Positions 17,995-36,471 of a stretch of DNA of 64,000 bases are shown in pieces. The stretch is from Pseudomonadales bacterium (GTDB lineage: Bacteria; Pseudomonadota; Gammaproteobacteria; Pseudomonadales; DT-91): the NCBI GenBank assembly GCA_965248335.1, contig CBDFIY010000003.1:1758920-1822919 (forward strand), written 5' to 3'. The translations under genes and the position numbers were made by a program. The first letter of the stretch is position 1. Each line of letters starts with the position of its first letter. Below the pieces are notes generated by a model that saw only the letters and a list, made by a program, of their open reading frames with translations, was not told where the DNA came from and made no database searches.

Positions 17995-18560
17995 AAATAA
18001 GGTTTAAACCCCCGCCTTCAGGCGGGTAGCTTTAAGCTAGCAGTTGCCTTTATGATGCGGGCATGAAATACCGTTATGGTTCGCACACGAAATATAAGAT
18101 TGAATATCATTTTGTTTGGGTGACTAAGTATCGCTATCAGGTATTAAAAGGCGATGTTGGACTGAGAGTTCGTGAGTTAATCAGGCAAACGTGTGAGTAT
18201 TTAGAAATAGAAATATTGCGCGGCGTGATCAGCAAAGATCATGTACATTTGCTGATATCTGTGCCACCGACTTTATCACCAGCAGAGGTAATGAGGAGAA
18301 TAAAAGGTCGATCATCGACTAAATTGTTTCAGGAGTTTCCACATTTAAAGAAAAGGTATTGGGGACAGCATTTTTGGGCGAGAGGTTATTTTTGTGTGAC
18401 GGCTGGAGAGCTAACTAAAGAGATGATACAGGAGTATCTGGAGCACCACTTTGAACGAAAATTTGATGATAATTTCGATGTTGAATGAGAGTATTTATTC
18501 GGCTTTAGCCGAAAAGCTGGACTTTCAGTCCGCAGTTTTTAACCCACCGTCTTTAGGCGG
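17995..18560 (+). mobile_element. IS200/IS605-family element. Bounds are approximate and taken from the end hairpins.
   Basis: Upstream hairpin CCCGCCTTCAGGCGGG at 18011..18026. Downstream palindromes TCGGCTTTAGCCGA and CCACCGTCTTTAGGCGGTGG. The Y1 transposase lies between them. Confidence 0.6.
18063..18488 (+). CDS. tnpA: IS200/IS605-family Y1 (HuH) transposase TnpA (141 aa).
   Basis: The HuH motif HVHLLIS and conserved Y/R residues (WARGYF) are present. The size is typical. Confidence 0.9.
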   Translation: MKYRYGSHTKYKIEYHFVWVTKYRYQVLKGDVGLRVRELIRQTCEYLEIEILRGVISKDHVHLLISVPPTLSPAEVMRRIKGRSSTKLFQEFPHLKKRYWGQHFWARGYFCVTAGELTKEMIQEYLEHHFERKFDDNFDVE

Positions 18561-19559
18561 TGGTTGTTAATTCTACTGCCTAAATCAGCGCCAATTTCAG
18601 GTAGTATTTTTTCAAAAAACTCGCTAATTTTATTTTTAAAATCCTTTGCCGTGGAAAAGTACTGGTTATTCCTGACTTTTTCGTTCATCACCTTCCACAG
18701 CCGCTCTATGGGGTTTAGATTTGGGCTGTATGGTGGCAAGGTGTGAAGTTTAATGCCTAACTTGTCCGCAGCGCTCAGGACAGCCTTGGATTTATGATAG
18801 CCAGCTCCATCTAAAACTAAATGCACTGTCTTCTCACTATAATGTGCTCGTATTTTATGGAAAAATTCAATAATCGAATCGCCATTAACGGTGTCATATT
18901 GGCCGATAATAGCTTCTTCTATATGGGTGAAGTTCGATAGCACCTATTATATTGAGCCGTGTCCGACTTCCCGTGGTCTCTATGGGTTTATCGACACCCG
19001 TTTTGATCCATCCCGATGTGATTTTTGTTGCTTGAGTTGGATGAACTGCATCCATGAACAGTAAGGCTTCACCCTCTGATAGCTCAGCTTTTAGCGCTTC
19101 ATACTTTTCAATAAATTGCGCTTGTTTTTCAACATCAAACTTATGTGGAATGCCTTTAGGCTTTTTATAGCTGAAACCCTTTTGGTGTAACCACTGGGTT
19201 AGCCCTGAAACACTAAACTGCACACCCCAAGTTGTTTTAATATAATGACCAATTTGGCTCACTTGGGTATATATTTTTCCTGACAAATGAGTAACCAGCA
19301 ACTGAGATTGCTCGTTATCTAGGTAACCTTTGGAGCCGCCATTGGTTGATAATAACTTTTCATCATTTAGGTAATCATTAAGATGCCGAACAATCGTGGA
19401 CTCATCTTTTCTTAATGCCTGAGCGATCATTCTTGTCGACCAGCCTTCCGACCGCAACAAAACGACCTTCAAACGATCACTTTCTCTACTGTCTCTTGCT
19501 TGCTTATGACGCAATTCCAGTGCAAGTTTTTCGTTTTTTGTCAGGTCGATTTTCAGCAT
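18539..19559 (-). pseudogene. IS630-family (Tc1/mariner-like) transposase split into two overlapping ORFs (18894..19559 and 18539..18943). It is either +1/-2 frameshifted or, less likely, a programmed frameshift.
   Basis: N-terminal HTH region (RLKVVLLRSEGWSTRMIAQAL). The C-terminal DDE part has NLNPIERLW. The join falls in ...RLNIIGAIEL/SNFTHIEE. Confidence 0.7.
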
Positions 19560-19762: not shown

Positions 19763-20851
19763 ATGAGTGTGATTGCTCAGGCAGATACTTTACCTGAAAC
19801 CAGAAAAATCAAAGTTAGCAGCCCGTTGCTTTTTGCGCTGTATGGCATTATTCCCTTGTGCTTTGTTGTGTTGTTGTTGGATGTTTTTGTCTTCGATCAA
19901 CAGTTAAAAGCCACTTTTTTGCCTGTCGAGCCAGCACAGTGGGCATTTTGGGCGATTATTTTTAATTTCCCTCATATTGTTTCTTCGTTGATTACCTTGG
20001 TTGATAAAGAATACTGGCAATTCTATCAAGCACGCATGGGCAAAGCATTAATCGTGATTACACTGTTTGTGGTGACGATAACTTATCTTATCCCTCTCAT
20101 TTTTAGTGGTTTCGTATCGTCTATCATATCAGGTTTGTTTTTTGCATTTTTTGCGGCTTACACCATGTACCATGTGCTCTCGCAGCAGTTCGGTATAGGT
20201 ATGATGATGATGCGGGTGACTCAAAGCAGCTTGTATCAAGCATGGAGAGCTACCTCCACGGTCGCTGCAACGAGCTTATACTTGTGTGTTTTCGCTAAAG
20301 GCCCGCTCTCTACTATTATGATCTTAGATGTGCCGGTGAATGCCATACTGCAAAGCATTATTGGTGTTTCTTTGTTGGCGGCAACTTTTTTCGGTTTGTC
20401 GTTAGTCAAAAAGTCGCAGCGTAAGCTGGGCACGGGCTACGTTGTTTCCAATATATTGATGCTGTATTCAACGTGGTTGTTTTTGTTTTTAGATTACACG
20501 ATTTTTGTGATCATGATTCCTCGATTTGTTCATGATATAACGGCGTTTATTATTTATGCGACACATGATCAAAACCGCAATGCGGTAGAAGCACCCAATT
20601 ATATTTATCGCTGGATGCGGTTTGTACCTCTTTCGCCATTATTGTTATGCCCATTATTGGCGATTGGATTGGCAAATGGTATTCAAGGATCGACTGCTTT
20701 TGTCGATCAGTTTTTCATCGTTTCTGGTTTTCCAAGTGTGCTACAGATCAGTACGCAAATCGTTTTGATTGCGAGTCTTTTCCATTATTACATCGAAAGT
20801 TTTGTCTGGAAGCGCGACTCGCTACATCGTCATCATGTAGGGTTTAGTTGA
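19763..20851 (+). CDS. Hypothetical polytopic membrane protein (362 aa).
   Basis: Long ORF with about 8-10 hydrophobic segments. No recognisable family. Confidence 0.4.
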   Translation: MSVIAQADTLPETRKIKVSSPLLFALYGIIPLCFVVLLLDVFVFDQQLKATFLPVEPAQWAFWAIIFNFPHIVSSLITLVDKEYWQFYQARMGKALIVITLFVVTITYLIPLIFSGFVSSIISGLFFAFFAAYTMYHVLSQQFGIGMMMMRVTQSSLYQAWRATSTVAATSLYLCVFAKGPLSTIMILDVPVNAILQSIIGVSLLAATFFGLSLVKKSQRKLGTGYVVSNILMLYSTWLFLFLDYTIFVIMIPRFVHDITAFIIYATHDQNRNAVEAPNYIYRWMRFVPLSPLLLCPLLAIGLANGIQGSTAFVDQFFIVSGFPSVLQISTQIVLIASLFHYYIESFVWKRDSLHRHHVGFS

Positions 20852-23530: not shown

Positions 23531-23887
23531 ATGGTGCTTGGAATACGAATTATGGAAATAGTGATTAATTTTACAATCTGTATTTTTATATGTTTAGTTT
23601 TTTCTGTACTTGGTGGCGATGATGATTATCAGCTTGAAAATTTGCTTGCTGTTAGTGCTGCTAGGAAAAATATTAAAAATAAAGCTCCCCTTCCTCCTGC
23701 AGTTGCACTAAGTGACTTCTCAACTGTAAAAGTAATCGATATGAAAAATTTACCTCTTAAGGAACGAAAGCGAATAGTCCAAACGCCTCCTCCCGATGAG
23801 TCTACAGAAAACAGTGATTCTAATGTTGATGCTAAATTATCTCTTGTAAATCAGAATCCAGATAAGAAAATTTATTATTACCGGTAG
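23531..23887 (+). CDS. Hypothetical small membrane-anchored protein (118 aa) in an AT-rich stretch.
   Basis: ORF only. It has an N-terminal hydrophobic segment and no known family. The surrounding 23340..23900 is very AT-rich. Confidence 0.2.
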   Translation: MVLGIRIMEIVINFTICIFICLVFSVLGGDDDYQLENLLAVSAARKNIKNKAPLPPAVALSDFSTVKVIDMKNLPLKERKRIVQTPPPDESTENSDSNVDAKLSLVNQNPDKKIYYYR

Positions 23888-23919
23888 ATTTCAACATACT
23901 TGTCGCCTAAAGTTTACTT

Positions 23920-24996
23920 TTATGCCGCCTGATTTATTTCCCTATTACTTTTAGATTTCCCTGGGTTTAAATAAACCTCAGCAATGTGATCCCAGTTTCT
24001 AATGTCGCCACTCCATCGCTCTGGGTGCGCCATTTTCGCCTGTAGATAAACAGCTTTACGGTTGATTAAGATAATTCTATCTTGCTTCGTATGACGCTCT
24101 ACAGGCGTGACATATTTTATGCTGCTGTGTCTGTGCTCATGATTATACCAATCAGCAAATCCATTCACCCATTTTCGTGCTAAATCTAAACCCTCAAAGG
24201 CTTTTTCTGGGTATTCTGGTCGATACTTAAGTGTTCTAAATAATGACTCAGAATAAGGGTTATCATTACTAACAGAGGGGCGGCTAAACGACGGAGCAAC
24301 CCCTAATTCTTGCAGTGTCGCTAGCATTGTTGCGCCTTTCATCGGGCTACCGTTGTCCGAATGTAAGATCACCTGATTCGGCTTAATCCCTTCACGTAAG
24401 CAAATATCTGTCATTAAATCTGCGGCCAATGCACTGCTTTCTTGTTCATATACCTGCCAACCAACAATCTTTCGGCTATAAATATCCATGACAAGATACA
24501 AGTAATAAAACAAGCCTTTTACCGTTGTTGGTAAATACGTAATATCCCAACTATAAATCTGATTCGGGCCTGTGGCCGTCAACGATTCAGGTTTTGTAAT
24601 AACTCTGGCAGGCTTACTTCTCAGCCGATGCTTATCTTGTTTATGTGCTTTTAACACACGGTAAATAGTGGATTCAGATGCGATGTACACACCTTTATCT
24701 GCAAGCATTGGCACGATGACGCTGGGCGATAAATTCGCGTATTCAGGTTGGTTGCAGACCTGAATAATACGCTGTCTCTCAAGCTCACTGAGCTTATTAC
24801 AAGGGCTGTGCTTGGCTGACAAACGACCATCTTCATCGCCCTCTGGTCGCGCCCAGCGCTGTAATGTTTTTGGTGTAATGCCTATAATATCGCAAGCCTG
24901 CCTTTGCCTAGCACCATTGGATCGAGCCTCGCTAATCAAGTGAATAATATCATCACGCTCTTGTTTCACTATTAGCTGGCCTCGTCGCTTTCCCAT
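23920..24996 (-). CDS. IS3-family transposase OrfB (integrase catalytic core, DDE).
   Basis: rve-type domain (WDITYLPT, LHSDNGSPM, YNHEHRHSS). The frame is open upstream into the orfA overlap. Confidence 0.85.
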   Translation of the reverse strand: MGKRRGQLIVKQERDDIIHLISEARSNGARQRQACDIIGITPKTLQRWARPEGDEDGRLSAKHSPCNKLSELERQRIIQVCNQPEYANLSPSVIVPMLADKGVYIASESTIYRVLKAHKQDKHRLRSKPARVITKPESLTATGPNQIYSWDITYLPTTVKGLFYYLYLVMDIYSRKIVGWQVYEQESSALAADLMTDICLREGIKPNQVILHSDNGSPMKGATMLATLQELGVAPSFSRPSVSNDNPYSESLFRTLKYRPEYPEKAFEGLDLARKWVNGFADWYNHEHRHSSIKYVTPVERHTKQDRIILINRKAVYLQAKMAHPERWSGDIRNWDHIAEVYLNPGKSKSNREINQAA

Positions 24997-25493
24997 ATTT
25001 CGTGGACTTTTTTTTGGAGTACTAGCAGCGCTGCTGTTTCAGCTAATGCCTTATCTTTACGGTTTAACTCCTTTTTTAGTAACTTAATGTCATTTTTAAA
25101 TTGCTTATTCTCACTTTGAATTTCTGAAGCAGTCGATAGGGGCTTATTCTTGATAAAATCACCTCTCCATTGGTTGATATGATGTGGGTATATTCCTTTC
25201 TCTCGGCAAAGCTGGCTGATGTCCTCGACGCTCAAAGATCCGCAGGCAATGACCATATTCAAACGTTCTTCAGCGCTCCAATCTTGGGGCCTTTTTTCTT
25301 TAACCATGGTCATTACCCCACCATCTAATGGTTGATTAAGCCGTTGCTCTTTAGCCTGTCTAATCCATTTTTGTAACGTCGAATGGCCAATACCTAAGTT
25401 TTCAGCCACATCCTTGATGCTCATACATTCTTGTCGGCTCAATGCCTTTTCTATTGCCTGTATCTTAAACGAATGGGTAAACGATTTTCTCAT
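24972..25493 (-). CDS. IS3-family transposase OrfA (HTH + leucine zipper).
   Basis: HTH MSIKDVAENLGIGHSTLQKW. It overlaps orfB, and an A8G slippery run lies about 35 nt before its stop. Confidence 0.85.
   Translation of the reverse strand: MRKSFTHSFKIQAIEKALSRQECMSIKDVAENLGIGHSTLQKWIRQAKEQRLNQPLDGGVMTMVKEKRPQDWSAEERLNMVIACGSLSVEDISQLCREKGIYPHHINQWRGDFIKNKPLSTASEIQSENKQFKNDIKLLKKELNRKDKALAETAALLVLQKKVHEIWESDEAS
25007..25016 (-). promoter_or_regulatory. Candidate -1 programmed ribosomal frameshift site (A AAA AAA G) joining orfA and orfB.
   Basis: The plus strand has C-T8-GG at 25007..25017. On the coding strand this is CCAAAAAAAAG, the canonical IS3 A6G-type slippery heptamer inside the orfA 3' end. 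Confidence 0.6.
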
Positions 25494-25644
25494 TTTTTAT
25501 GCCTCTAATTAAAATTTTAGAGGCGACAAGTATCCTGACACAGGGGGTTACCCACTGTGGAAAAGAATGTTCTGTTGCTGTTGGATTAAATGCGAGCAAA
25601 AGCTGGCTGCGCATCAAATGAGAACTTTTATAGATGATCAGTAA

Positions 25645-28600
25645 TCATGCTATGTTAATATTTTTTAGTTTCTCTGCAATGGCAATCATCTTGTCATGAT
25701 TCTTCAAATCAATATCCAGCTTTTTATCCATACTTTGTACCAGTGGTGAAAGGCTGTACTCGATACTTTCGGCCAAGGCATGCAGTACTTTTTGGATGCC
25801 GGGCACCGGTTGATTGACCACTTGTACATCCGTTTTATTTGCTGCAAATATTTTTGCCATTAACGCGAGGCTTTGTCTGTCCATCGTGAGTGAGGGGGTA
25901 GACGAAGAGTTATCTAACGCAGATAATAATGCTTTTATGCTATCGGGGTGAAGACGGAGATTATTTTCACTGTTGTCCGTTGAACTTTGGGTAACTTGCT
26001 CAGCCGTTTGATTGAGCTGCTTAAAGCCACTGACAAGATCAACAAGCTGTGCGACCACTTTACTGCCTACATCGGCATCATCACCGCCCATGGCTTTGTT
26101 GCGAAGAAAGTCTGCTTTAATGGCTTTCCAGCGCTCGGTCTCTTCTGCTGTCATATTGCCGCGCAGTTCGGCCAATTTAAGTAAATTCGCTTCCGCACCA
26201 GCGGTTAATAGCTGCGCTTCGCCCACATAGTGATCGGCAATCAGCGTCAAGAGTTCATCGTCATTCATCACGGCCGAGACTTTCTCGGTCATTTTGTTCA
26301 TGTTTCGGTAGCTACCTTGTAATTTAAACGCAGGCTCCGTGCGGTATTGATTATCTTGCGCGGCAGATTGGATATATTGTTGATTCACGTTGAGAATCAC
26401 CTCTTGCACCACAAACAGTTTTTTGAAAACAGTGACGATTTCATCCAGCTCTGCACCGCTGTAAGGGTGGCTAAGGGCATGGGTTGAGACCTCTTTGCCT
26501 TGTGCCATGGCGATCAAATGATAGATGTCTTGCATTTCGCGCAGTGCTAAAGGAGCTAAAACGGGGTGTGAGGTGAGTGCGTTCTCGACATAACTGAGGG
26601 AAAAGGGTTCTTCCATGCCGCCTAAAACATCACCGAGATTATAAATATCAGCACGGTTGGCGAGCATGTCCGGTACTTTAAACACATCACCGGATTCGGT
26701 GTAAGGGTTACCGGCCATCACCACGCAAAATTTACGGCCACGCATGTCATAGGTTTTGGTTTGCCCTTGCCAGATGCCTTCGATACGACGTGTGCCATCG
26801 CAGAGCGAGATAAATTTTTGTAAAAACTCGGGGTCTGTGTGCTGAATATCGTCTAAATACAGCATCACGTTGTCACCCATCTCTAAGGCTAAATTGAGTT
26901 TGATGAGTTCTTGTGCAGCGGTGGAATTCGGGGCTGTAGCCGGATCGAGTGAAACGACTTCATGGCCTAAAGACGGGCAGTTGATTTTCATGAAAATCAA
27001 CCCTAAGCGGCTGGCGACGTATTCCATTAAGGTCGTTTTACCGTAGCCTGGGGGGCTGATCATCATCAACAATCCCATTAAGTCGGTGCGTTTTTTATCG
27101 CCTAATGCGCCCATTTGTTTTGCCAAGTTATCGCCAATGATCGGCAAATAAGCTTCGTTAATTAAGCGGTTACGTACAAACGAACTTAATGGTTTAGGTG
27201 TGAACTCATGCAAGCGTAGTTTTTCGCGCTCTTCGCTGATGATGTTTTTTCGCACTGCTAGATAGCGTTGGTAAGCCGGAATAATCACAGTTTTATGTTG
27301 GGCTAAACGCTGTAAAAATTCATCCAATGAGAGGCGTAAGCTCCGGTCTTTTATGCGCGCATGGCTGCCCATTAAACCGGTGATGGTGCTGTCGATTACC
27401 GCGTCGTTACGTCGGTAGCTGAGTTGTGACTCAGACAATAAAATCGCGCAGGCTTCGGGGATATAATGCGCGAGTCCTTCTTGCGGTTGATCCGACAGCA
27501 GGGCAGTTAACCAAGCCGTAGCCAGTTGCCACTGTTCGCCGACCTGATCGTTGAGGTGGCTTAATGCTTGGCGTAATGTTTTCCAAAGATCATCGGTGAG
27601 TGCTGTTTTTAAGCTGTCGATTAAGCGTAAACCTTGCTGACTTTGGATGAATGCACAGTTGGGGCGGCCGAGTTCATGCGCGAGATAATCAGCGGCTTGA
27701 TGCAGCGTGCCCTCATCGACAGGCAGTGCGTGGCTTGTGGCGAATAGGGTTAATTGCGTGCTGACTTCGGCGGTGAAGAGATTTATCGCCTCAAGGCTGC
27801 CAAAGTGGTCTTTCATTTGTTGTGCTGATTGCGCACGTTGAAGAAAGTTTTGCGTGGTGATGTCGGTTTTACCCTGACAAGCAGCAAGCCAAAATACTTG
27901 GGCAACAGCGCGTATGAGCGGGCTAAATCTGAGCAGGTCTGCATGGGCTAACGCGGGAAGTAGCGCTTGTAGAATCTTTTTCGCATCCTCATCATGAATG
28001 CCTTTTTGGTAGCCTTCTTGGTAACGGGGTGCAGCAAAATCGCGCACCAGTGCGGTTAGAGCGGCCTCATCCAAACGCGCGGCGTCGAGTTTTTCGAGCG
28101 TCAAATCGTCTTTGTGATGTTGTGCCGCATCAAGAATTTCATACGCCAGAAATTCTGCACGATAGACTTGATCGGTTTCCGAGATTTGGTTCATTGACCA
28201 ATAATCTTTCAGCGCTAATAACTCAGGGTGATCGATCTTTTCAAAATACTGGGTGCCCGTGATGTGGCAATAGAGATCGCCCTCACGCGGAATAATGGTG
28301 AGATCTAGGGGTTGCGTATTGACGCTGAATTTATGCCGCGGCCCGAGCTTGATGACGTTGCCGCCTTCTTCATAAATATCGGTTTTGTCGCGTAAGGCGC
28401 GCAGTGCTTGTTCTTTGATTGCAGCAAATCCTGAGGCGATTTCATCGGCTTTGACGTTGCTGTCGAGTGCGCGTAATTGCTCGATCAGATCACGTACCTT
28501 GATCACCAGTGCATCCGAGGAAAAGTAGGTGTGTAGGGCCTGTGCTTCGTTCATTTTGAGCGAGCGTCTTTCCATGTTTTTTAACATGCGTTGCGCTGCA

Positions 28601-30948
28601 TCGGTTAATGATTGTGCCTTGCGTTGTTGTTCGTCAATCAGTTGTTGCTTGTGCGACTCAAACGCTTCGTAGATATCTTCGCGCTTGGTTAAAATATCCG
28701 CCAAGAACGTATCTTGACCGCTAAATTGGCTTTCTAAATCTTCGAGTTGTACCAGTAAACGCGATAATTGTTCATCGCAGGCATCCGGCGTCGCCGCATT
28801 GCCCAAGGCGTTGGTTAAGCTTTGTGATAGCAGCTTAAATTGCGCCGAAAATTGCGCCGTTGATTCGGTGGAGGTTAAGGCTTTTTCGCGGTGCTTGGCC
28901 TGTGCTTTGCTTTGGTTGAGTTTGGCGTAGACATCGGAGATGGCTTCTATGATGCGAGCTTTCAGTGTCACATCAGGCACTTTCAGGGTTGCCATTAATT
29001 CGCTGAGTAAATCGAGTCCCTCGGCAATCGCTTTAACGGCTTCTACGAGTGGGGTGAGGGTATGGGTGTTTTCAGCGGCGGCTATGTCGCTATCAAGGCG
29101 GCTAATTTTTTCAAAATAAGGTGCTAATGCACGTTCATCTGCTAAAAAATCGACGGTCTTTTGTTGTAATCCGGCTTCGCTATCATTGAGTTCGGTTGTC
29201 ATGATTTCAATGCGATCGAGATCAATATAACGATGACCCTTGATGGTCATTAAGCGGCCGCGCTGTTGCCGGCAGTCGATGAGGGCGTTAACGTAATCTT
29301 CCGCTTGCTCCCATTGTTCAATCTGCAAGGCTTTTAATAAGGCGGATTGATCCGTTTCTGCTTGACGCATAATGGCGGCAGATTGGGTTTGAATGCTCTG
29401 CACTTTGATGAATTCGTCGATGACCAGCTCGGCGGTATCACTGATGGCTTTGAGTGTGTCAGCCAATAGTTTTAGGGATGCATCGGTCAGCCAATAATGG
29501 TTATCAAAGATTTTTTTGGCGGTGCTGCTCAGTGCTTCGTAACGCTTTTGCGAAACGATGTTGTCATCGATCATGCGGGTAATGCTGAACAGATCAGAGA
29601 CGCCGCGCACCAAGGCAGCGTTGCCAATTTTACCCAGAAAACTTTGGCTGGTGGGCTGCTGTGCGGCAAAATCAGCGCTGATAAATGGCGTTTGCCAAAT
29701 TTGCATAGGGTGGATGCGGGTGGCTTCTTCTTCGGCAGTAAAAATCGCCAAAATGCCGTCTTCGGCGAGTGCATAGCCATGCCCCATGATGGGATTACCG
29801 AGTTGCTTATCAATCAGGTTGTAGGCAAATAACCCCATGGCACCATCATTCGGGTTGTAAAAAACATAAGAAATATCTTCACCGTTAGGCGAGCGGATGG
29901 CGCGTTTAAAGGTAAAACCCTCGGTGTTTTCATCAAAGGTTTTGTACTCGCCGCTTTGCAGGTAGTAACCACCGGGGAAGATCAGACCGTGATCTTCGGG
30001 TAGCTGCACACAAGATTCACCCAGTGCATCAATGCGCAGCACCGATTGGGTGAGGGTATTAAAAATAAAATAACGCCATTTTTCTTCGCGGTAAGGGCGA
30101 ATCTTTAACAAGATAAGCTTGCCGACTTCGGCATAATGGAAGTCGCCATCATCTAAGGATTGAGTTTGATCGTCGACAAGTTCTTGGTAAATGCCTAAGC
30201 CGTCTTCGGTGTTGTTTTCTATTTTTAAAGTTAAATCGCCATTGATGGTTTCAACAAAAACAGTATCCAGAATATTGATATGGGAGTGACGTCCGTGTAC
30301 GGCATCTTCGCGGCGGGTTTCTTGCCATTCAAAATCAAATGCGGGCGGTAATTGAATGTCGCGTTCACCGCGATTATCGATGTAGTCGATAATGTTTTCG
30401 CAGGCTGAGATTGACCAGCGGAAAACACGCAAGTCGGTTAATCGTTCGCCAATTTGAAAACCGGCTAAAAGTTTACCTTGTTTGACGGTGAGTTCGACCA
30501 GCTTGGTATTTTTGTAATAACGATACAGTTCTTCAAAATCTTGGGTGAAACGGCTGTCGTTGAGGAAGGTGTCATCGAGGTTGAGCGGCTCTAACGCATA
30601 GTCGTCGTCGCTATACACTGGCTCAAAAAGGGCAAAAACATCCTGAACCTGTGTTTCTTTTTTCAGGCCAATAAACACGTTGTAGCCAAATAGTAGGTTG
30701 CTGCCAACTTGCACCATATCCCGCGCAATGCAGTTGTGTTCGGTGCGGACGCGGATGCGTGACATCACCGACATGTCGGAACGGCCGAATTCATTGAGCC
30801 TTGATTCGTTGAGTGTTTCGGTTTGCGTCAGTAACTCACGGCTTTGAACATCAAGTCGCTTACGGATGACATCATACGCACCGCCTTCGGCAACGGAGGT
30901 ATCCAGTGAGTTTTCAGCGTGTTCTTGCAGGGCATCAGGCGTGCTCAT
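25645..30948 (-). CDS. Giant multidomain protein (1767 aa) with a central/C-terminal AAA+ ATPase module (MoxR/AAA_5-like) and long coiled-coil regions. Function unknown.
   Basis: Walker A ISPPGYGKTTLMEY, Walker B VMLYLDDIQ, sensor-1 CVVMAGNPYTE and Arg-finger-like NRADIYNLG are all present. The N-terminal ~450 aa is probably beta-rich. A very long helical/coiled-coil middle section follows. The ORF is open throughout. Confidence 0.8.
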   Translation of the reverse strand: MSTPDALQEHAENSLDTSVAEGGAYDVIRKRLDVQSRELLTQTETLNESRLNEFGRSDMSVMSRIRVRTEHNCIARDMVQVGSNLLFGYNVFIGLKKETQVQDVFALFEPVYSDDDYALEPLNLDDTFLNDSRFTQDFEELYRYYKNTKLVELTVKQGKLLAGFQIGERLTDLRVFRWSISACENIIDYIDNRGERDIQLPPAFDFEWQETRREDAVHGRHSHINILDTVFVETINGDLTLKIENNTEDGLGIYQELVDDQTQSLDDGDFHYAEVGKLILLKIRPYREEKWRYFIFNTLTQSVLRIDALGESCVQLPEDHGLIFPGGYYLQSGEYKTFDENTEGFTFKRAIRSPNGEDISYVFYNPNDGAMGLFAYNLIDKQLGNPIMGHGYALAEDGILAIFTAEEEATRIHPMQIWQTPFISADFAAQQPTSQSFLGKIGNAALVRGVSDLFSITRMIDDNIVSQKRYEALSSTAKKIFDNHYWLTDASLKLLADTLKAISDTAELVIDEFIKVQSIQTQSAAIMRQAETDQSALLKALQIEQWEQAEDYVNALIDCRQQRGRLMTIKGHRYIDLDRIEIMTTELNDSEAGLQQKTVDFLADERALAPYFEKISRLDSDIAAAENTHTLTPLVEAVKAIAEGLDLLSELMATLKVPDVTLKARIIEAISDVYAKLNQSKAQAKHREKALTSTESTAQFSAQFKLLSQSLTNALGNAATPDACDEQLSRLLVQLEDLESQFSGQDTFLADILTKREDIYEAFESHKQQLIDEQQRKAQSLTDAAQRMLKNMERRSLKMNEAQALHTYFSSDALVIKVRDLIEQLRALDSNVKADEIASGFAAIKEQALRALRDKTDIYEEGGNVIKLGPRHKFSVNTQPLDLTIIPREGDLYCHITGTQYFEKIDHPELLALKDYWSMNQISETDQVYRAEFLAYEILDAAQHHKDDLTLEKLDAARLDEAALTALVRDFAAPRYQEGYQKGIHDEDAKKILQALLPALAHADLLRFSPLIRAVAQVFWLAACQGKTDITTQNFLQRAQSAQQMKDHFGSLEAINLFTAEVSTQLTLFATSHALPVDEGTLHQAADYLAHELGRPNCAFIQSQQGLRLIDSLKTALTDDLWKTLRQALSHLNDQVGEQWQLATAWLTALLSDQPQEGLAHYIPEACAILLSESQLSYRRNDAVIDSTITGLMGSHARIKDRSLRLSLDEFLQRLAQHKTVIIPAYQRYLAVRKNIISEEREKLRLHEFTPKPLSSFVRNRLINEAYLPIIGDNLAKQMGALGDKKRTDLMGLLMMISPPGYGKTTLMEYVASRLGLIFMKINCPSLGHEVVSLDPATAPNSTAAQELIKLNLALEMGDNVMLYLDDIQHTDPEFLQKFISLCDGTRRIEGIWQGQTKTYDMRGRKFCVVMAGNPYTESGDVFKVPDMLANRADIYNLGDVLGGMEEPFSLSYVENALTSHPVLAPLALREMQDIYHLIAMAQGKEVSTHALSHPYSGAELDEIVTVFKKLFVVQEVILNVNQQYIQSAAQDNQYRTEPAFKLQGSYRNMNKMTEKVSAVMNDDELLTLIADHYVGEAQLLTAGAEANLLKLAELRGNMTAEETERWKAIKADFLRNKAMGGDDADVGSKVVAQLVDLVSGFKQLNQTAEQVTQSSTDNSENNLRLHPDSIKALLSALDNSSSTPSLTMDRQSLALMAKIFAANKTDVQVVNQPVPGIQKVLHALAESIEYSLSPLVQSMDKKLDIDLKNHDKMIAIAEKLKNINIA

Positions 30949-31010
30949 CGAAACATGTCCTTTGAAGAGAGGCGGGTAAGCGCTTAAGGTTTTAAGCGCT
31001 GGGTGTGGAA

Positions 31011-32990
31011 TTAATCAACCAGTTCGGCCGTTTGCTGGCGAGATGTTTTTTTGTCGACTGTGTTATTGGGCGTGAGGAATTTTTCCATAGCGCTGTCTAA
31101 CAAGGTAGATATGGTCGTGCTTTTATCGGCTAGCCCATCAACGGCCTTGCCGATGGAGAGCGATTTGGCGAAGTTATCAAAGAAGTGATCTTCACCGCCA
31201 ACGATATCAATTTTTGCCTGACCAAGGGCTACGGCTAACACTTCGGCGTTGTCTTTGGCGATAGCTTTGCCTGCATCGATAGTCGCAAGTGCTTCTTCTA
31301 GCGCAGTTTCAAGGCTCATACGGAATTCTTCGTGCGCACGTGCCTTATCACTCATGCTGCCCATGGCGTCGAATTTATCCACGAGACCATCGGCTTCGGC
31401 TTTAAATTGTTCGCGGGTGATGATGGCTTTGGCTTTACCAATTTCTTCTTTTGCATGTGCTTCAGCGTCACCTTTTTTGGCAATGACACTTGCTTCTGCT
31501 GACCCGGTGCCTGAATGCGCATCAGCTTCTGCATCGCCCATAGCCTTCACGACGTTTGCCTCAGCAAAACCTTCTTTTTCAAGCGATGCGGCTTTCGCAG
31601 ACTGCACTTCTGCATCGGCGAGGCCGGGGGCGGCACGTTCGGCGCGAAGGGCGTCGGCGAGTTTCTTTTTCGCTTCGGCTTCTTTGGCTGCAGCGTCTAA
31701 TTCGGCTTGGGCAAGAATGGTGATCTCGGTGGCTTTGTGTTTCGCTGCTTGCTCCTCGGCAAGGGCGGCTGTGATTTGCTTCACTTTATCTTCGTCGGCT
31801 TTGGCTTCAGCGGCTAAGATTTTTACTTGCTTAGCACGATCAGCTTCGGAGACTTCGCGTACTTCGTTGATGCGTTCTTCTTCAACGGCCACGGTTTTGT
31901 CGACAGCTATGCGCTCACGAATCACGTTGGCGATTTCTTTTTTCTCGAGTTCGATGGCTTTTTCGGCTTCAATACGTTGCAAGTCGACTTCACGTTCGCG
32001 GGCTACGATTTCGAGATCTTTGGCACGCGTGACTTTTTCTTCTTCGATGACGACAGCGCGCTGGCGGTTTTGCTCAGCAACTTCGATTTCACGCTTTTGG
32101 TTTTCGGTTTGTACCGCTAAATCTTGCTCGACTTGAATGCGAGTACGCTCTGCTTTTAAGCGCTCTTCTTCTTGTACTTTTAAGGTTTCTGCTTCTTCGC
32201 GGGCTTTGATGGTGAGTATTTCGCGTTTTTGTTTGGCTTCGGCATCGGCTTGCTGGCGTTCGAGTTCCAGCATGGCTTCTTTGGCGGAGACATCTTTGCC
32301 TTTGATAGATAATTCTTCGTCGCGCTCTAATTCATTGGTTAGGATGTTTTGTGCGGCGGTTAATTCAGTAATTTTTTTGATGCCTTCTGCATCGAGAATG
32401 TTGTTCGGGTCGAGCGAGGATTTTGGCGTTTGCTCAAGGTAATCAATGGCGACATCTTCAAGCACGTAACCGTTTAAATCGTCACCGATCACTTCGATGA
32501 TTTTTTCACGAAACTCTAAGCGGTTTTCAAATAATTGTACGAAATCGAATTGTTTGCCAGCAGTTTTAAGGGCTTCCGAAAATTTGGCAGCAAATAATTG
32601 ATCGACGGCTGCGCGATCTGAAGCGCGGGTTGCACCCAAAGATTTAGCTACTTTTAATACATCTTCCTGTGTTTCGTTGACGCGTAAGTAGAAAGCGACA
32701 GTGATATCGGCACGCATGTTGTCTTTACAAATCAAACCATCTTGGGCACGGCGGTCGACTTCGAGTGTGATTAACGAGATGCGCATGAGTTCTTTTTTAT
32801 TGATGATGGGGTAGACCAACGCGCCGGTGAAGACGACTTTAGGTTGGGAAGACATATCATTCACGATCATTGCTGTGCCTTGCTCAACTTTGATATACCA
32901 CGCTTTGATAATGCTTAAAATACCAATAGGCAGTACGAAAAAAACAAGCGCGAGAATAACGAGCCCCATAAATCCACTGATGTCAGCCAT
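31011..32990 (-). CDS. yqiK: Flotillin-like SPFH/band-7 protein, YqiK-like (659 aa), with an extended Ala/Glu/Lys-rich coiled-coil tail.
   Basis: N-terminal TM, then an SPFH domain strongly resembling E. coli YqiK (KVVFTGALV..., DRRAQDGLICKDNMRADITVAFYLRVN..., LFAAKFSEALKTAGKQFDFV..., LNGYVLEDVAIDYLEQT). A long heptad-rich region follows. Confidence 0.9.
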   Translation of the reverse strand: MADISGFMGLVILALVFFVLPIGILSIIKAWYIKVEQGTAMIVNDMSSQPKVVFTGALVYPIINKKELMRISLITLEVDRRAQDGLICKDNMRADITVAFYLRVNETQEDVLKVAKSLGATRASDRAAVDQLFAAKFSEALKTAGKQFDFVQLFENRLEFREKIIEVIGDDLNGYVLEDVAIDYLEQTPKSSLDPNNILDAEGIKKITELTAAQNILTNELERDEELSIKGKDVSAKEAMLELERQQADAEAKQKREILTIKAREEAETLKVQEEERLKAERTRIQVEQDLAVQTENQKREIEVAEQNRQRAVVIEEEKVTRAKDLEIVAREREVDLQRIEAEKAIELEKKEIANVIRERIAVDKTVAVEEERINEVREVSEADRAKQVKILAAEAKADEDKVKQITAALAEEQAAKHKATEITILAQAELDAAAKEAEAKKKLADALRAERAAPGLADAEVQSAKAASLEKEGFAEANVVKAMGDAEADAHSGTGSAEASVIAKKGDAEAHAKEEIGKAKAIITREQFKAEADGLVDKFDAMGSMSDKARAHEEFRMSLETALEEALATIDAGKAIAKDNAEVLAVALGQAKIDIVGGEDHFFDNFAKSLSIGKAVDGLADKSTTISTLLDSAMEKFLTPNNTVDKKTSRQQTAELVD

Positions 32991-33018
32991 GATTCTTCCT
33001 TTTTTATTGTGTGTTAAA

Positions 33019-33738
33019 TTATTTTAGAAAGTCTTTTTCAGCGATGACTGAATAGGTGTTTTGTTCTTTCTGGTATGCCAATAACACCACGCGATCGCCT
33101 TTAGTAAATGTCGTGTCTTCATGTGTGCGAACTTTTAAGATCAAGCCTGCGCCGCCATCTTCAACAACCGCCTCGCCAAAGTTGTGATCGACACGCGAGC
33201 TTCTGACGACTGCAGTTTGCCCAAGAATGTATTGTTCAGTGGTTTTTTTTAATTGCTGAAAGAGTGGCCGAAGCGGTTTAATGCAAAAGATCGTGATTTT
33301 TAACCCAAGAAACAGGGAAACCAGAAATATACCCATATTAGCGGCAAGGCTTAATATACCGGCAGGGATATAGGCTTCGGAAAAATAAACAAAATAATAA
33401 CTAAAGAACCAAGCAAATACCGCGATCAAGGTGAGCGAAATGGTAACAGGTACATCGTGCAAGTTGAGTTTTAGAATAACGCCAGCAATGCCGTCAGGCA
33501 CTGTGGCCGTATCTGCTTCAAGGGCACCTGTGTCGATATCAGTGCCGCCTAGGAAATCGATATCGACAAGCCCGAGTACAGCAATACACCAAAAGAGCAG
33601 GGTTAGGATTAAGAAAAAGGTGAAAATGGCTGTTGGGAAGCTTGAGGCAAGCTGATAGAAAGGATCCATTTTTTCACTGAGAAAAATCGCAAACACAAGC
33701 CGTCCTTTTTTATTATTCGCACCCTTTGCGGGCAGCAT
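33019..33738 (-). CDS. yqiJ: NfeD-like membrane protein (YqiJ-like) with a C-terminal OB-fold.
   Basis: Several TM helices, then the NfeD beta-barrel (GQTAVVRSSRVDHNFGEAVVEDGGAGLILKVR...GDRVVLLAY). The true start may be the internal Met (MDPFYQL...). Confidence 0.75.
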   Translation of the reverse strand: MLPAKGANNKKGRLVFAIFLSEKMDPFYQLASSFPTAIFTFFLILTLLFWCIAVLGLVDIDFLGGTDIDTGALEADTATVPDGIAGVILKLNLHDVPVTISLTLIAVFAWFFSYYFVYFSEAYIPAGILSLAANMGIFLVSLFLGLKITIFCIKPLRPLFQQLKKTTEQYILGQTAVVRSSRVDHNFGEAVVEDGGAGLILKVRTHEDTTFTKGDRVVLLAYQKEQNTYSVIAEKDFLK

Positions 33739-33797
33739 AAACCGTGTTTATTCTAGCACGGTATGCGTACTTGTTTTCAAGACTTACTTGGCTTGTT

Positions 33798-35088
33798 GTT
33801 TGGCTCCCAGGGCCTCCTAGCACTTTTTGATCAGTGCATAAATTGACCGGAGAAAAGCATTTTCTCTCTGTATTTATCATTAATTGCACACCCCATAACT
33901 CGATGTTTCATCCCCTTTTTGCTTTGATCATTAAGTGTTAACAAATTCATACAGTGACGCTTTATTGTAGCAATATTGAGCCCAGCGGAATGAAGCTGGC
34001 AGTCATCTTCTTTAAAAGTAACATCTAACCGCCAATGCAGTTTATTTTCTATTTCCCAGTGTCCCCTAATGGCTTTCGCCGCATGCTTTGCATCAGGAGA
34101 GCGTGAGCTAATATACCAGGAAACTTCTTTAGACTCCCCTTTATTTGAAGACCGATGCCGCTCAACACGCACAGCCGAACTCAAGCCGCTCCAAGGTTTA
34201 GCCTTATCTACCCAGTCTGTTAATTCAAAGTGCTGATATTTCCTTATCTCTAATCGACCATGCCCTTTATTCGCCTCCTCAAAATATGAGGTCTTATTTT
34301 CTTCATAACCATCACGTTCAAGCTTGTGATGAAAAGCTTGGATTTCTTCCAGCAACCCCTGCTGATTACCTTTCAGTTGCAGAAAATAGTCAGCTTCTTT
34401 TTCAATAATCTTTTTTGCGATTTCTTTTTGGCATCCCATCGCATCAATGGTAATAGTGGCATTTTTTACCTCAATTCTGTCGATAAGCTTCGGCAAAGTT
34501 TTGATTTCATTTTTCTTTCCTTCTGATTCGAGGGCACACAGCGTCAGGCCTCGGCTTTGAGACCATGCACTAATAACATGGATGGCTTCTCGACCATTGT
34601 GCCTTGTTCCTCGCATCGTTTTGCCGTCTAATGAAATAACATCTCCTGTAGATTCACCCTGCAAACTTGAAACGAATGTCGTAAACCCTTCAATCAAATC
34701 TCTTGGTCTTATGCATGCAAGTAAAAACCGTAATGTTTCTGCACAGGGAGCAGATTCGATATCTGTATGCTTCTGCAGCCAGTCAAGCTTCATAGCTGCA
34801 AAATTAGACATGCTGTTAGGGCTATCATAACCACTTATTATTGATGAAAAAACGATTAGAAGGAGGCTTTCAAGGCTGTGTTTTTGATTGATGCCTTGTC
34901 GCGGATCTCTTATTGAGGCTGTACATGCAGATATATTCATGGTGTTTGGATGGCAGAAAACTATCTTTGACAATAGGTATGAGAAATTGACTATTTTAAT
35001 ATTGAATTTTTCAAGGACTTCGTATTATATGACAGCTTAAACTTTGTACTGATCAAAAAGTGCTAGGAAGCCCTGGTTTGGCTCCTAG
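33798..35088 (-). mobile_element. ISAs1-family element (about 1.29 kb).
   Basis: 35-bp terminal inverted repeats, CTGATCAAAAAGTGCTAGGA(G/A)GCCCTGG..., at 33798..33832 and 35051..35085. The transposase ORF lies inside. Confidence 0.8.
33831..34973 (-). CDS. ISAs1-family transposase (H-repeat-associated protein type).
   Basis: 380 aa. The C-terminal signature RGHWEIENKLHWRLDVTFKEDDC is diagnostic of ISAs1. Confidence 0.85.
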   Translation of the reverse strand: MSKIVFCHPNTMNISACTASIRDPRQGINQKHSLESLLLIVFSSIISGYDSPNSMSNFAAMKLDWLQKHTDIESAPCAETLRFLLACIRPRDLIEGFTTFVSSLQGESTGDVISLDGKTMRGTRHNGREAIHVISAWSQSRGLTLCALESEGKKNEIKTLPKLIDRIEVKNATITIDAMGCQKEIAKKIIEKEADYFLQLKGNQQGLLEEIQAFHHKLERDGYEENKTSYFEEANKGHGRLEIRKYQHFELTDWVDKAKPWSGLSSAVRVERHRSSNKGESKEVSWYISSRSPDAKHAAKAIRGHWEIENKLHWRLDVTFKEDDCQLHSAGLNIATIKRHCMNLLTLNDQSKKGMKHRVMGCAINDKYREKMLFSGQFMH

Positions 35089-35091
35089 GGG

Positions 35092-36288
35092 TTAGTGCTT
35101 TTTCGGTTTTTTGGATTTGAAGGGTTTGGTGTTGAGTTTTGAGGGCGGTAATTTAGCCATGGGCTCGAAACCTGTCACCTCTTTTCGTTCAAGCACTTTT
35201 TTTGTGAGTCGCTCAATGGCTTGCAATTGTTTAAATTCATCGGCACTGACCAAGGATACGGCATGGCCCGTGGCACCTGCGCGCCCTGTACGACCAATAC
35301 GATGCACATAATCTTCGGCAACTTGTGGCAGGTCGACATTAATAACATGTGGCAGTTGATCGATGTCGATGCCTCGTGCGGCAATATCGGTAGCAACTAA
35401 GGTACGAATAGAGCCATCTTTGAAACCGGCAAGCGCTTTAGTTCGTGCACCTTGGCTTTTGTTGCCGTGAATGGCCGCTGCGCCGACACCAGCTGCTTCG
35501 AGCTGTTTGGCTAGTTTATTGGCGCCGTGTTTGGTGCGTGAAAATACCAGCACCTGTTGCCAGTCATTGTCTTTGATTAAATGAACCAGTAATTTGGCTT
35601 TGTGGCTTTTATCGACGGGATGAATCCACTGCGTAACGGAGGAGGCTGTGGTGTTTCTTGGGGTAACGGATATCTCTACAGGGTTGTGAACCAAGCCCTT
35701 GGCCAGTGCGCGAATCTCTTCCGAGAAAGTGGCGGAAAACAACAAGTTTTGACGCTTTTTTGGCAAGAGCGCGATAATCTTTCGGATGTCTCGAATAAAG
35801 CCCATATCCAACATGCGATCCGCTTCATCTAAAACGAGCACTTCGAGTTGATTGAATTTCATCGCATTTTGCTGATAAAGATCGAGCAATCGGCCAGGTG
35901 TAGCAACCAAAATATCAACGCCCTTACGCAGTTTCATCATTTGTGGGTTGATTTTCACCCCACCAAATACCACGGCAGAGCTGATGTTTACATTTTTGCT
36001 ATAAATCTCGATGCACTGATGAACTTGCGCGGCAAGCTCACGTGTTGGCGTGACGATCAGTGAGCGCACTTGATTACCTTGCGCTGGCTTCCCTTTAGCG
36101 AGTTTTTCGATTAAAGGTAAGGCGAAGCCCGCTGTCTTGCCTGTACCAGTTTGTGCGGCAGCAAACACATCTTTGCCTTCTAAAATGGCAGGGATAGCTT
36201 GCGCTTGAATGGGTGAAGGCGTTTCGTAGCCTTGTTCAGTTACCGCATCAACGATTTGTGCGGATAAACCAAGAGAAGAAAAGGTCAT
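35092..36288 (-). CDS. rhlE: DEAD-box ATP-dependent RNA helicase (RhlE-like).
   Basis: Q-motif start [33 protein letters not shown], then [32 protein letters not shown], and a basic C-terminal tail. The ORF extends upstream, but the RhlE-like Met was chosen as the start. Confidence 0.85.
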
Positions 36289-36471
36289 AGATGAATTACT
36301 TATGATGAGTGGTTTAGGTCTCCAAATGGAGAGCCGCGCAGTGTACAGTAAAGCCTGCGTTGAGTCACAAACTAAGGTCACGATCTGAGGTAGCGGTTAA
36401 TGCTTGTATTATTACGTGGCTGATGCGTGATTTTATTTAGTGGCGTCATGCGGTAATAAGGTTCCACCTAT

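Follow-up and report, generated by a model that had tools for sequence, protein, structure and literature searches.

A YqiJ-like, flotillin and giant DUF3686 ATPase gene trio in a Pseudomonadales genome is a shortened copy of a catalogued operon type

INTRODUCTION

Bacterial flotillin genes occur in two-gene units with an NfeD-like gene, such as yqiJ-yqiK of Escherichia coli and yuaF-floT of Bacillus subtilis, which belong to the SPFH2/NfeD2 pairs (Hinderhofer et al. 2009, PMC2636767). A 64,000-nucleotide stretch of a Pseudomonadales genome (assembly GCA_965248335.1, contig CBDFIY010000003.1, positions 1,758,920 to 1,822,919; the window hereafter is this whole stretch) carries a unit of this kind in the same gene order, flanked by insertion sequences (IS). 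Unlike the E. coli pair, after which there is no ATPase gene, the pair in the window is followed by a gene for a 1767-residue AAA+ protein. The locus therefore raises the question of whether the giant ATPase is a genuine partner of the flotillin pair and, if so, what kind of system the three genes form. Here we report that the order of the three genes is conserved across several phyla and that the locus belongs to an operon type that has already been described.

RESULTS

The gene trio and its conservation

The three genes lie between positions 25645 and 33738 of the window and are encoded on one strand:

33738..33019, minus strand, yqiJ-like (NfeD-type) open reading frame (ORF), 239 aa open frame, coordinates confirmed by the ORF list; gene likely 33019..33696
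32990..31011, minus strand, yqiK-like flotillin (SPFH) gene, 659 aa ORF
30948..25645, minus strand, giant DUF3686 AAA+ ATPase gene, 1767 aa ORF

The gaps are 28 bp between the yqiJ-like and yqiK-like genes and 62 bp between the yqiK-like and ATPase genes; the coordinates given for these co-directional ORFs in an earlier, sequence-only reading of the window were exactly reproduced. A Shine-Dalgarno sequence is present ahead of the yqiK-like gene and ahead of the ATPase gene, and a scan of the spacers found no terminator with a U-tract between the trio genes. Short gaps, a ribosome-binding site for each downstream gene and the lack of a U-tract terminator together look like the signals of an operon. 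The yqiJ-like gene probably starts at GTG 33696, though its frame is open up to ATG 33738; this GTG is preceded by an AAGGA Shine-Dalgarno sequence 6 nt upstream, and P0241, the copy of the protein in the database, has a length of 225 aa. A candidate promoter sits between the yqiJ-like gene and the end of an ISAs1-family element described below:

33750..33780, minus strand, candidate sigma-70 promoter, TTGAAA, 19 nt spacer, extended -10 TGcTAGAAT

The candidate is a consensus match only, and it was not reported by a simple promoter scan because its spacer is 19 nt.

Loci encoding proteins of the DUF3686 family were then collected with one genome per species. More than 585 loci were confirmed and 80 were kept for analysis, drawn from Gamma-, Beta- and Zeta-proteobacteria, Myxococcota, Actinomycetota and one Clostridia metagenome-assembled genome (MAG), and partner genes were sought in the kept loci with profile hidden Markov models built from the YqiJ-like and YqiK-like proteins of the window. 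Wherever a locus reached far enough upstream (74/74), a YqiJ-like gene, a YqiK-like gene and the ATPase gene were adjacent, on the same strand and in the same order; the six loci without the full trio are contig ends. The window has this one-strand order too, and the homologue lists of the three proteins share contigs. The sequence-only reading had suspected that the ATPase and the SPFH/NfeD pair belong together functionally, a view now backed by linkage that is essentially without exception across several phyla. Its suggestion that genomes be searched for ATPase homologues beside SPFH and NfeD genes was thus borne out, and the outcome that it named as damaging, no tendency to neighbour such genes, is clearly not what was found.

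The wider neighbourhood was taken as the fetched locus, up to 10 kb on either side, and recurrent partners were identified by clustering of flanking ORFs. A pair made up of a DUF2170 (YjfI/CesT-like) gene and, after it, a PspA/IM30 gene recurred, each in 38 of the 80 loci, mostly immediately upstream of the trio and co-directional with it. Just downstream of the ATPase gene we found genes for a rhomboid protein (11 loci), a PLD-like HKD protein (13 loci) and TelA (12 loci). The closest relative of the window locus (66% identity, in a Pseudomonadales MAG) reads DUF2170-PspA-YqiJ-YqiK-ATPase-rhomboid, and the DUF2170-PspA pair is also found in the nearest marine gammaproteobacterial loci (including L002-L004, L008, L021, L026, L027 and L041). 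By tblastn, the 64-kb window holds no homologue of PspA, DUF2170, rhomboid or PLD proteins. Without the upstream CesT/Tir-like (DUF2170) and PspA/IM30 pair of the full form, the window locus is therefore an abbreviated form, as are 34 of the 71 loci that extended far enough upstream, in which the fetched locus held no PspA gene. About half of the genomes with the trio lack PspA, which suggests that flotillin and ATPase together make up the functional core.

A separate arrangement was seen in Stenotrophomonas, Lysobacter, Luteimonas and Xanthomonas, where a TelA (toxic anion resistance) gene follows the ATPase gene at a distance of about 0.5 kb, usually with no PspA gene upstream (Xanthomonadales loci L020, L022, L023, L025, L028, L038, L040, L047, L051, L059 and L069). 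TelA may be a lineage-specific substitute partner.

Correspondence to a described operon

To the sequence-only reading no described system with this gene content had come to mind. Such a system has in fact been catalogued: Ravi et al. 2024 (mSystems, PMC11237479) describe a CesT/Tir(DUF2170)-PspA pair together with three more genes, encoding a band-7/flotillin protein, a YqiJ/YuaF protein with three transmembrane (TM) segments and a novel AAA+ ATPase with coiled-coil and beta-propeller regions; a PLD gene sometimes joins the operon. According to the same study, abbreviated operons without the pair are more widespread and may act with PspA encoded elsewhere, and both forms are placed in the PspA/PSP envelope-stress network. 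The window differs from the full operon in having neither the CesT/Tir(DUF2170)-PspA pair nor a PLD gene. The published description is one of comparative genomics only and gives no mechanism.

An operon of this kind has been studied in Pseudomonas aeruginosa as bacABCDEF (PA3732-PA3727), the 'biofilm-associated cluster' (Mace 2008; Wallart 2024; PMC10948618). BacA is a DUF2170 protein, BacB is PspA and BacD (PA14_16180, PaFlo3) is an SPFH protein. Reverse transcription PCR placed bacA through bacF on one transcript, the authors proposed a sigma-54 site upstream of bacA, and in a bacA mutant all five downstream bac proteins were raised 6- to 13-fold. The genes PA3728-PA3732 are upregulated in all phage-infected P. 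aeruginosa samples.

The bac junction primers encode short peptides that can be compared with the window proteins. One, GLILKV, is identical to residues 198-203 of the window YqiJ-like protein (6/6), and a second, RIIEVI, matches KIIEVI of the YqiK-like protein at 5/6 positions. A third, PKNNCI, is a weaker match; it lies where DUF3686 has its conserved NNCIA block (EHNCIA in the window). Taken together, the literature and these primer-encoded motifs identify bacC-bacD-bacE (PA3730-PA3728) as the same module as the YqiJ-like, flotillin-like and ATPase genes. The bac operon differs in having bacA (DUF2170) and bacB (PspA) as its first genes, bacF as its last and a proposed sigma-54 site, none of which is found in the window. 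The locus is a shortened copy of an already catalogued operon type, not a new kind of system, and as the operon has been catalogued by comparative genomics the window locus itself adds little.

The flotillin and YqiJ-like partners

The gene identities that had been proposed from the letters alone (YqiJ/NfeD-like, YqiK-like flotillin, AAA+ ATPase) proved right by Pfam, BLASTP and hhalign. The two small proteins were identified through E. coli YqiK and YqiJ after Pfam, NCBIfam and PDB had given nothing usable. BLASTP aligned the 659-aa protein with YqiK (31% identity, 460 aa, residues 3-448, E=5e-46), an alignment that takes in the YqiK Band_7 region. The protein has a single N-terminal hydrophobic segment (TM, residues 10-28), an SPFH region, a helical region of about 300 aa rich in E, A, K, R and Q (EAKRQ fraction 0.63-0.68, residues 241-480) and a conserved C-terminal tail; the TM segment, band-7 (SPFH) region, coiled-coil and flotillin-type tail are thus all present. 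Its homologues carry the names YqiK and flotillin family. No Pfam match was found even at E<=10, Band_7 and Flot included, PDB sequence and profile searches were empty, and the NCBIfam FloT model reached only E=1.5e-4 over residues 464-520, far under its cut-off. Because homology to YqiK by BLASTP is clear despite the Pfam miss, we regard the protein as a member of a divergent subfamily rather than as a non-member.

The yqiJ-like gene encodes a protein of the three-TM YqiJ/YuaF type and adjoins the flotillin gene. In the 225-aa form, hydrophobic segments lie at residues 23-41, 82-100 and 121-139 and are followed by a C-terminal soluble domain. Likeness to E. coli YqiJ is weak but consistent: BLASTP gave E=2e-5, and the hhalign alignment, which spans 146 columns and takes in the C-terminal OB region, has a probability of 74% (E=2.7e-5). 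Topology and genomic partner are as in YqiJ, and the homologues carry the database name DUF1449 (YqiJ family). A Pfam search that included YqiJ_N and YqiJ_OB gave no match.

The Pfam models Band_7, Flot, YqiJ_N and YqiJ_OB match the E. coli proteins and miss the divergent window proteins, and indeed they miss the entire trio-type subfamily. Among the roughly 240 homologues listed for the flotillin and YqiJ partners, none had precomputed Pfam domains and most were named 'hypothetical protein'.

The giant DUF3686 ATPase

Two regions of the 1767-aa protein could be assigned:

29494..30837, minus strand, DUF3686 domain, aa 38-485, long N-terminal helix, then beta-rich propeller-like domain
26269..27081, minus strand, AAA+ module, aa ~1290-1560, Pfam AAA/AAA_5 and motifs

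Pfam matched DUF3686 to residues 38-485 (E=5e-200) and DUF7902 to residues 607-689; the AAA match, from residue 1295 onward, is weak, and AAA_5 (E=2e-4) lies under its cut-off. An AlphaFold2 (AF2) model of the N-terminal part has helices at residues 7-54 followed by about 25 strands, with a mean predicted local distance difference test score (pLDDT) of 65, and the protein has a helical arm of about 750 aa. DUF3686 with an AAA module, and a long N-terminal helix leading into a beta-rich domain, fit the AAA+ ATPase of the described operon. A hydrophobicity scan found no TM segment, and Pfam detected no protease, DNA-binding or nuclease domain.

The motifs of the AAA+ module comprise Walker A (SPPGYGKTT, 1298-1306), Walker B (MLYLDD, 1362-1367), GNPYTE (1413-1418), R1432 and GSYR (1545-1548); none of them varies among 30 diverse homologues, the window protein included, with identities as low as 32%. 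Since the motifs are intact and invariant, the window protein is expected to be an active ATPase. The Walker B motif has the form hhhhDD followed by IQH, not the usual AAA+ DE, with D1366, D1367, Q1369 and H1370 unchanged throughout the family.

With a low-confidence model of residues 1200-1767 (pLDDT 60), the best Foldseek matches were MoxR-class NorQ/CbbQ (E ~1e-4). When the AAA region was compared by hhalign, RuvB was best (E=7e-9 over 75 columns), ahead of FtsH and RavA (RavA 1e-3). MoxR-class ATPases, which have an AAA_5-type core and belong to the helix-2 insert clade, usually come with a VWA partner. The Pfam-identified recurrent neighbour clusters contained no VWA protein, although no search was aimed at VWA.

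The ATPase search returned 5166 homologues, with the database name 'DNA repair ATPase'. Among 1.84 billion representatives the DUF3686 family makes up 716 clusters at 50% identity, and full-length members are 1590-1930 aa long. The term 'DUF3686' occurred in no paper in a literature text search.

Insertion sequences and composition

The sequence-only reading had presented the trio as an accessory island bracketed by IS elements. Both flanking elements are real, and a third element lies further away:

33808..35076, minus strand, ISAs1-family IS, transposase 34973..33831, Pfam DDE_Tnp_1 and DDE_Tnp_1_assoc
~23889..25540 (approximate ends), minus strand, IS3-family IS, orfA 25493..24972 and orfB 24996..23920 in overlapping frames
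18539-19559, minus strand, IS630/Tc1-like transposase, two overlapping ORFs; HTH_33, HTH_29 and DDE_3 start in 18894..19559

The ISAs1 element has 32-nt terminal inverted repeats (94% complementary) and sits between two perfect copies of the 9-bp direct repeat TTTGGCTCC (33799-33807 and 35077-35085). Its insertion point is in the spacer between the yqiJ-like gene and a DEAD-box helicase gene (ORF 35092..36381), shortly after the stop codon at the 3' end of the latter. Because the 9-bp target duplication is intact, ISAs1 is a simple insertion that removed nothing, and loss of the PspA pair through this element is rejected; the argument holds for the ISAs1 side alone. The IS3-family element lies about 104 bp beyond the ATPase stop codon, has 18-nt inverted repeats (89% complementary, 23891-23908 and 25521-25538), and matches HTH_Tnp_1 and rve in its orfA and orfB; a reading of its flanks showed no clear target duplication.

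The flanking elements belong to different families, so the trio is not carried by a composite transposon: the two sides do not hold the same IS, and ISAs1 has a duplication of its own rather than one outside the pair. The IS630-like transposase is probably frameshifted. With this third element at about 18.5-19.6 kb, at least three IS families occur within 64 kb, and the region is therefore simply IS-rich. To call the trio an IS-bracketed island was thus an overstatement.

The trio had also been described as visibly GC-rich. Its GC content is indeed higher (47.3% for 25645-33738 against 43.0% for the whole window), GC at third codon positions in the ATPase gene is 0.505 (z=2.3 against 36 other genes) and the yqiK-like gene is an outlier in codon usage (distance 1.47; background maximum 1.09). 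The yqiJ-like gene does not stand out, however, and the compositional deviation of the trio is modest. The nearest homologues found in the ATPase, yqiK-like and yqiJ-like searches are 66%, 81% and 61% identical, respectively. The ISAs1 DNA gave no match to plasmids, and a metagenome scan with the neighbouring DEAD-box helicase returned relatives at 64-75% identity, with shared synteny on neither side. Horizontal acquisition of the trio is plausible but unproven. Beside the IS3 element and a MeaB gene, two plus-strand ORFs (23531-23887, 118 aa; 19763-20851, 362 aa) have no Pfam match.

DISCUSSION

A working model for the trio

We consider it probable that the trio is the conserved core of the PspA-associated flotillin/YqiJ/giant AAA+ membrane-maintenance operon (bacCDE type), present here in an abbreviated form, and that it serves ATP-driven remodelling at a flotillin scaffold. 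In such a system, the three-TM YqiJ/NfeD-like protein would act as anchor and nucleator of the flotillin homologue, whose long coiled-coil would mediate oligomerisation into a dome or cage at the inner membrane, on its cytoplasmic side. The AAA+ protein, 1767 aa long and soluble, would dock on this scaffold by means of its N-terminal beta-propeller and long helical arm, and could use ATP for the assembly, disassembly or remodelling of the scaffold and its clients under envelope stress. Possible clients include PspA/ESCRT-III-type polymers, whose genes adjoin the trio in other genomes or would lie elsewhere in that of the host.

Several observations weigh against this account. Physical contact between ATPase and flotillin is suggested by gene order only, and because there is no PspA or DUF2170 gene within the 64 kb, a PspA link in the host organism is unproven. 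The AAA+ clade is ambiguous, as the fold search leads to MoxR-class NorQ/CbbQ and hhalign to RuvB; the AF2 models are of modest confidence, the ATPase has no PDB relatives beyond the P-loop, and the literature holds no biochemistry or structure of any DUF3686 protein. Furthermore, deletion of paFlo3 reduced biofilm by only about 20% and gave no stress phenotype, and the case for bacCDE equivalence is built from published work and short primer-encoded peptides rather than from an alignment of the full proteins.

Pairing of an SPFH oligomer with an AAA+ ATPase at the membrane is an established principle, exemplified by HflK/C-FtsH and prohibitin-m-AAA. The functional logic of the trio (SPFH plus AAA+) is like that of these systems, for which the structure of an SPFH cage has been published. 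Compared with FtsH, however, the window ATPase has neither a protease domain nor a TM segment, is three times longer and is homologous at the P-loop only. A second parallel is ESCRT-III/Vps4: PspA is a member of the ESCRT-III superfamily, and the AAA+ ATPase shares the PspA operon in about half of the genomes. The window ATPase differs from Vps4 in having no MIT domain and in not clearly belonging to the classic clade, and there is no PspA gene near the window trio. Membership of HflK/C-FtsH or of ESCRT-III/Vps4 is excluded by domain content, the absence of TM segments and profile comparison.

Beyond the locus, the analysis puts forward the DUF3686 family as a concrete candidate for supplying the ATP-dependent step of flotillin/PspA membrane repair and maintenance in bacteria. 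More tentatively, DUF3686 AAA+ proteins might be the long-sought bacterial, ATP-driven remodeller of sub-membrane scaffolds, a Vps4 counterpart for PspA/ESCRT-III and/or an FtsH counterpart in an SPFH cage, with the trio as an autonomous core and flotillin, not PspA, as the obligate partner. If so, the family would fill a recognised gap, as a 2025 review stated that a Vps4-like ATPase 'appears absent in bacteria', and PspA-less loci like that of the window would show the flotillin scaffold to be the obligate partner.

Alternative explanations

The strongest competitor to scaffold remodelling is membrane protein quality control, in which the AAA+ protein inside a flotillin cage would unfold or extract client membrane proteins and would not remodel the scaffold or PspA itself. 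The precedent of HflK/C-FtsH for pairing an SPFH cage with an AAA+ protein speaks for it, as do the intact AAA+ motifs and the rhomboid intramembrane protease gene that directly follows the ATPase gene in 11 loci and in the closest relative. The ATPase, however, has no protease domain or TM anchor of its own, and with 1767 aa and an arm of about 750 aa it is unlike FtsH. Present data do not tell a client from a scaffold substrate, and we regard this explanation as rather unlikely, though one to be kept in mind.

A resemblance to anti-phage systems had been pointed out in the sequence-only reading, and a defence role would have the flotillin/NfeD scaffold keep a large NTPase in place at the membrane as sensor or effector, leading to abortive infection or a block to the phage. 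The IS flanks and mildly atypical GC content fit such a role, as does the upregulation of PA3728-PA3732 in phage-infected P. aeruginosa; however, phage induction is general to 'phage shock' membrane-stress regulons. The PLD-like HKD gene after the ATPase in 13/80 loci has a fold also found in defence nucleases, but the core trio is without an effector domain and the recurrent neighbours (PspA, DUF2170, TelA, rhomboid) speak of membrane stress, not of restriction, abortive-infection or toxin genes. None of the three proteins matched a defence-system model of PADLOC (PADLOC-DB v2), even at E<=1. No relatives were present in 2.9 million viral contigs, and a phage-borne origin is rejected on that ground. 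The resemblance therefore finds no direct support, and we judge a defence role improbable.

It is about equally improbable, if anything slightly more so, that the window trio is a decaying remnant, a piece of a longer PspA operon severed by IS elements, cut from its promoter and partners and non-functional here. Such a history could be read from the DUF2170-PspA pair in the closest relative and in the nearest marine gammaproteobacterial loci, from the rhomboid gene downstream in the closest relative, and from the fact that both partner positions in the window are occupied by IS elements in an IS-rich region. Yet all three frames are intact, including the 5.3-kb ORF, and every family-invariant column is kept. 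Moreover, the intact 9-bp duplication argues against a deletion by ISAs1, about half of the sampled species naturally have the trio without PspA (34/71), and a plausible extended -10 promoter is still present.

Finally, the idea that the protein is a DNA repair ATPase and its flotillin neighbourhood incidental is very improbable: it draws on the Pfam text for DUF3686 ('ATPase involved in DNA repair'), the NCBI homologue name and the hhalign match of the AAA core to RuvB, but that likeness is limited to the P-loop region, no DNA-binding or nuclease domain was detected by Pfam, the gene is invariably linked to genes for two membrane proteins and often to PspA, and in a literature search on DUF3686 no paper backed a repair role. 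The label is misleading, being without supporting evidence, and it persists beside partners that escape Pfam.

A hairpin in the flotillin-ATPase spacer

One further feature of the locus lies directly after the flotillin stop codon, inside the 62-bp spacer:

30979..31000, minus strand, spacer hairpin between the flotillin and ATPase genes, AGCGCUUAA-AACC-UUAAGCGCU, perfect 9-bp stem, 4-nt loop

The hairpin has no U-tract, and the RNA fold of the window spacer has an energy of -12.9 kcal/mol (z=-3.55). In other loci with flotillin-ATPase spacers of 30-400 nt, z was <=-2 in 33/52 against mononucleotide shuffles. Strong spacer hairpins were seen in L003, L005, L009, L010, L012, L024, L030, L031, L055, L058 and others; many of those in other genomes are terminator-like, and several have T-runs like those of intrinsic terminators. 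The window hairpin could act as an attenuator that gives a high flotillin to low ATPase ratio.

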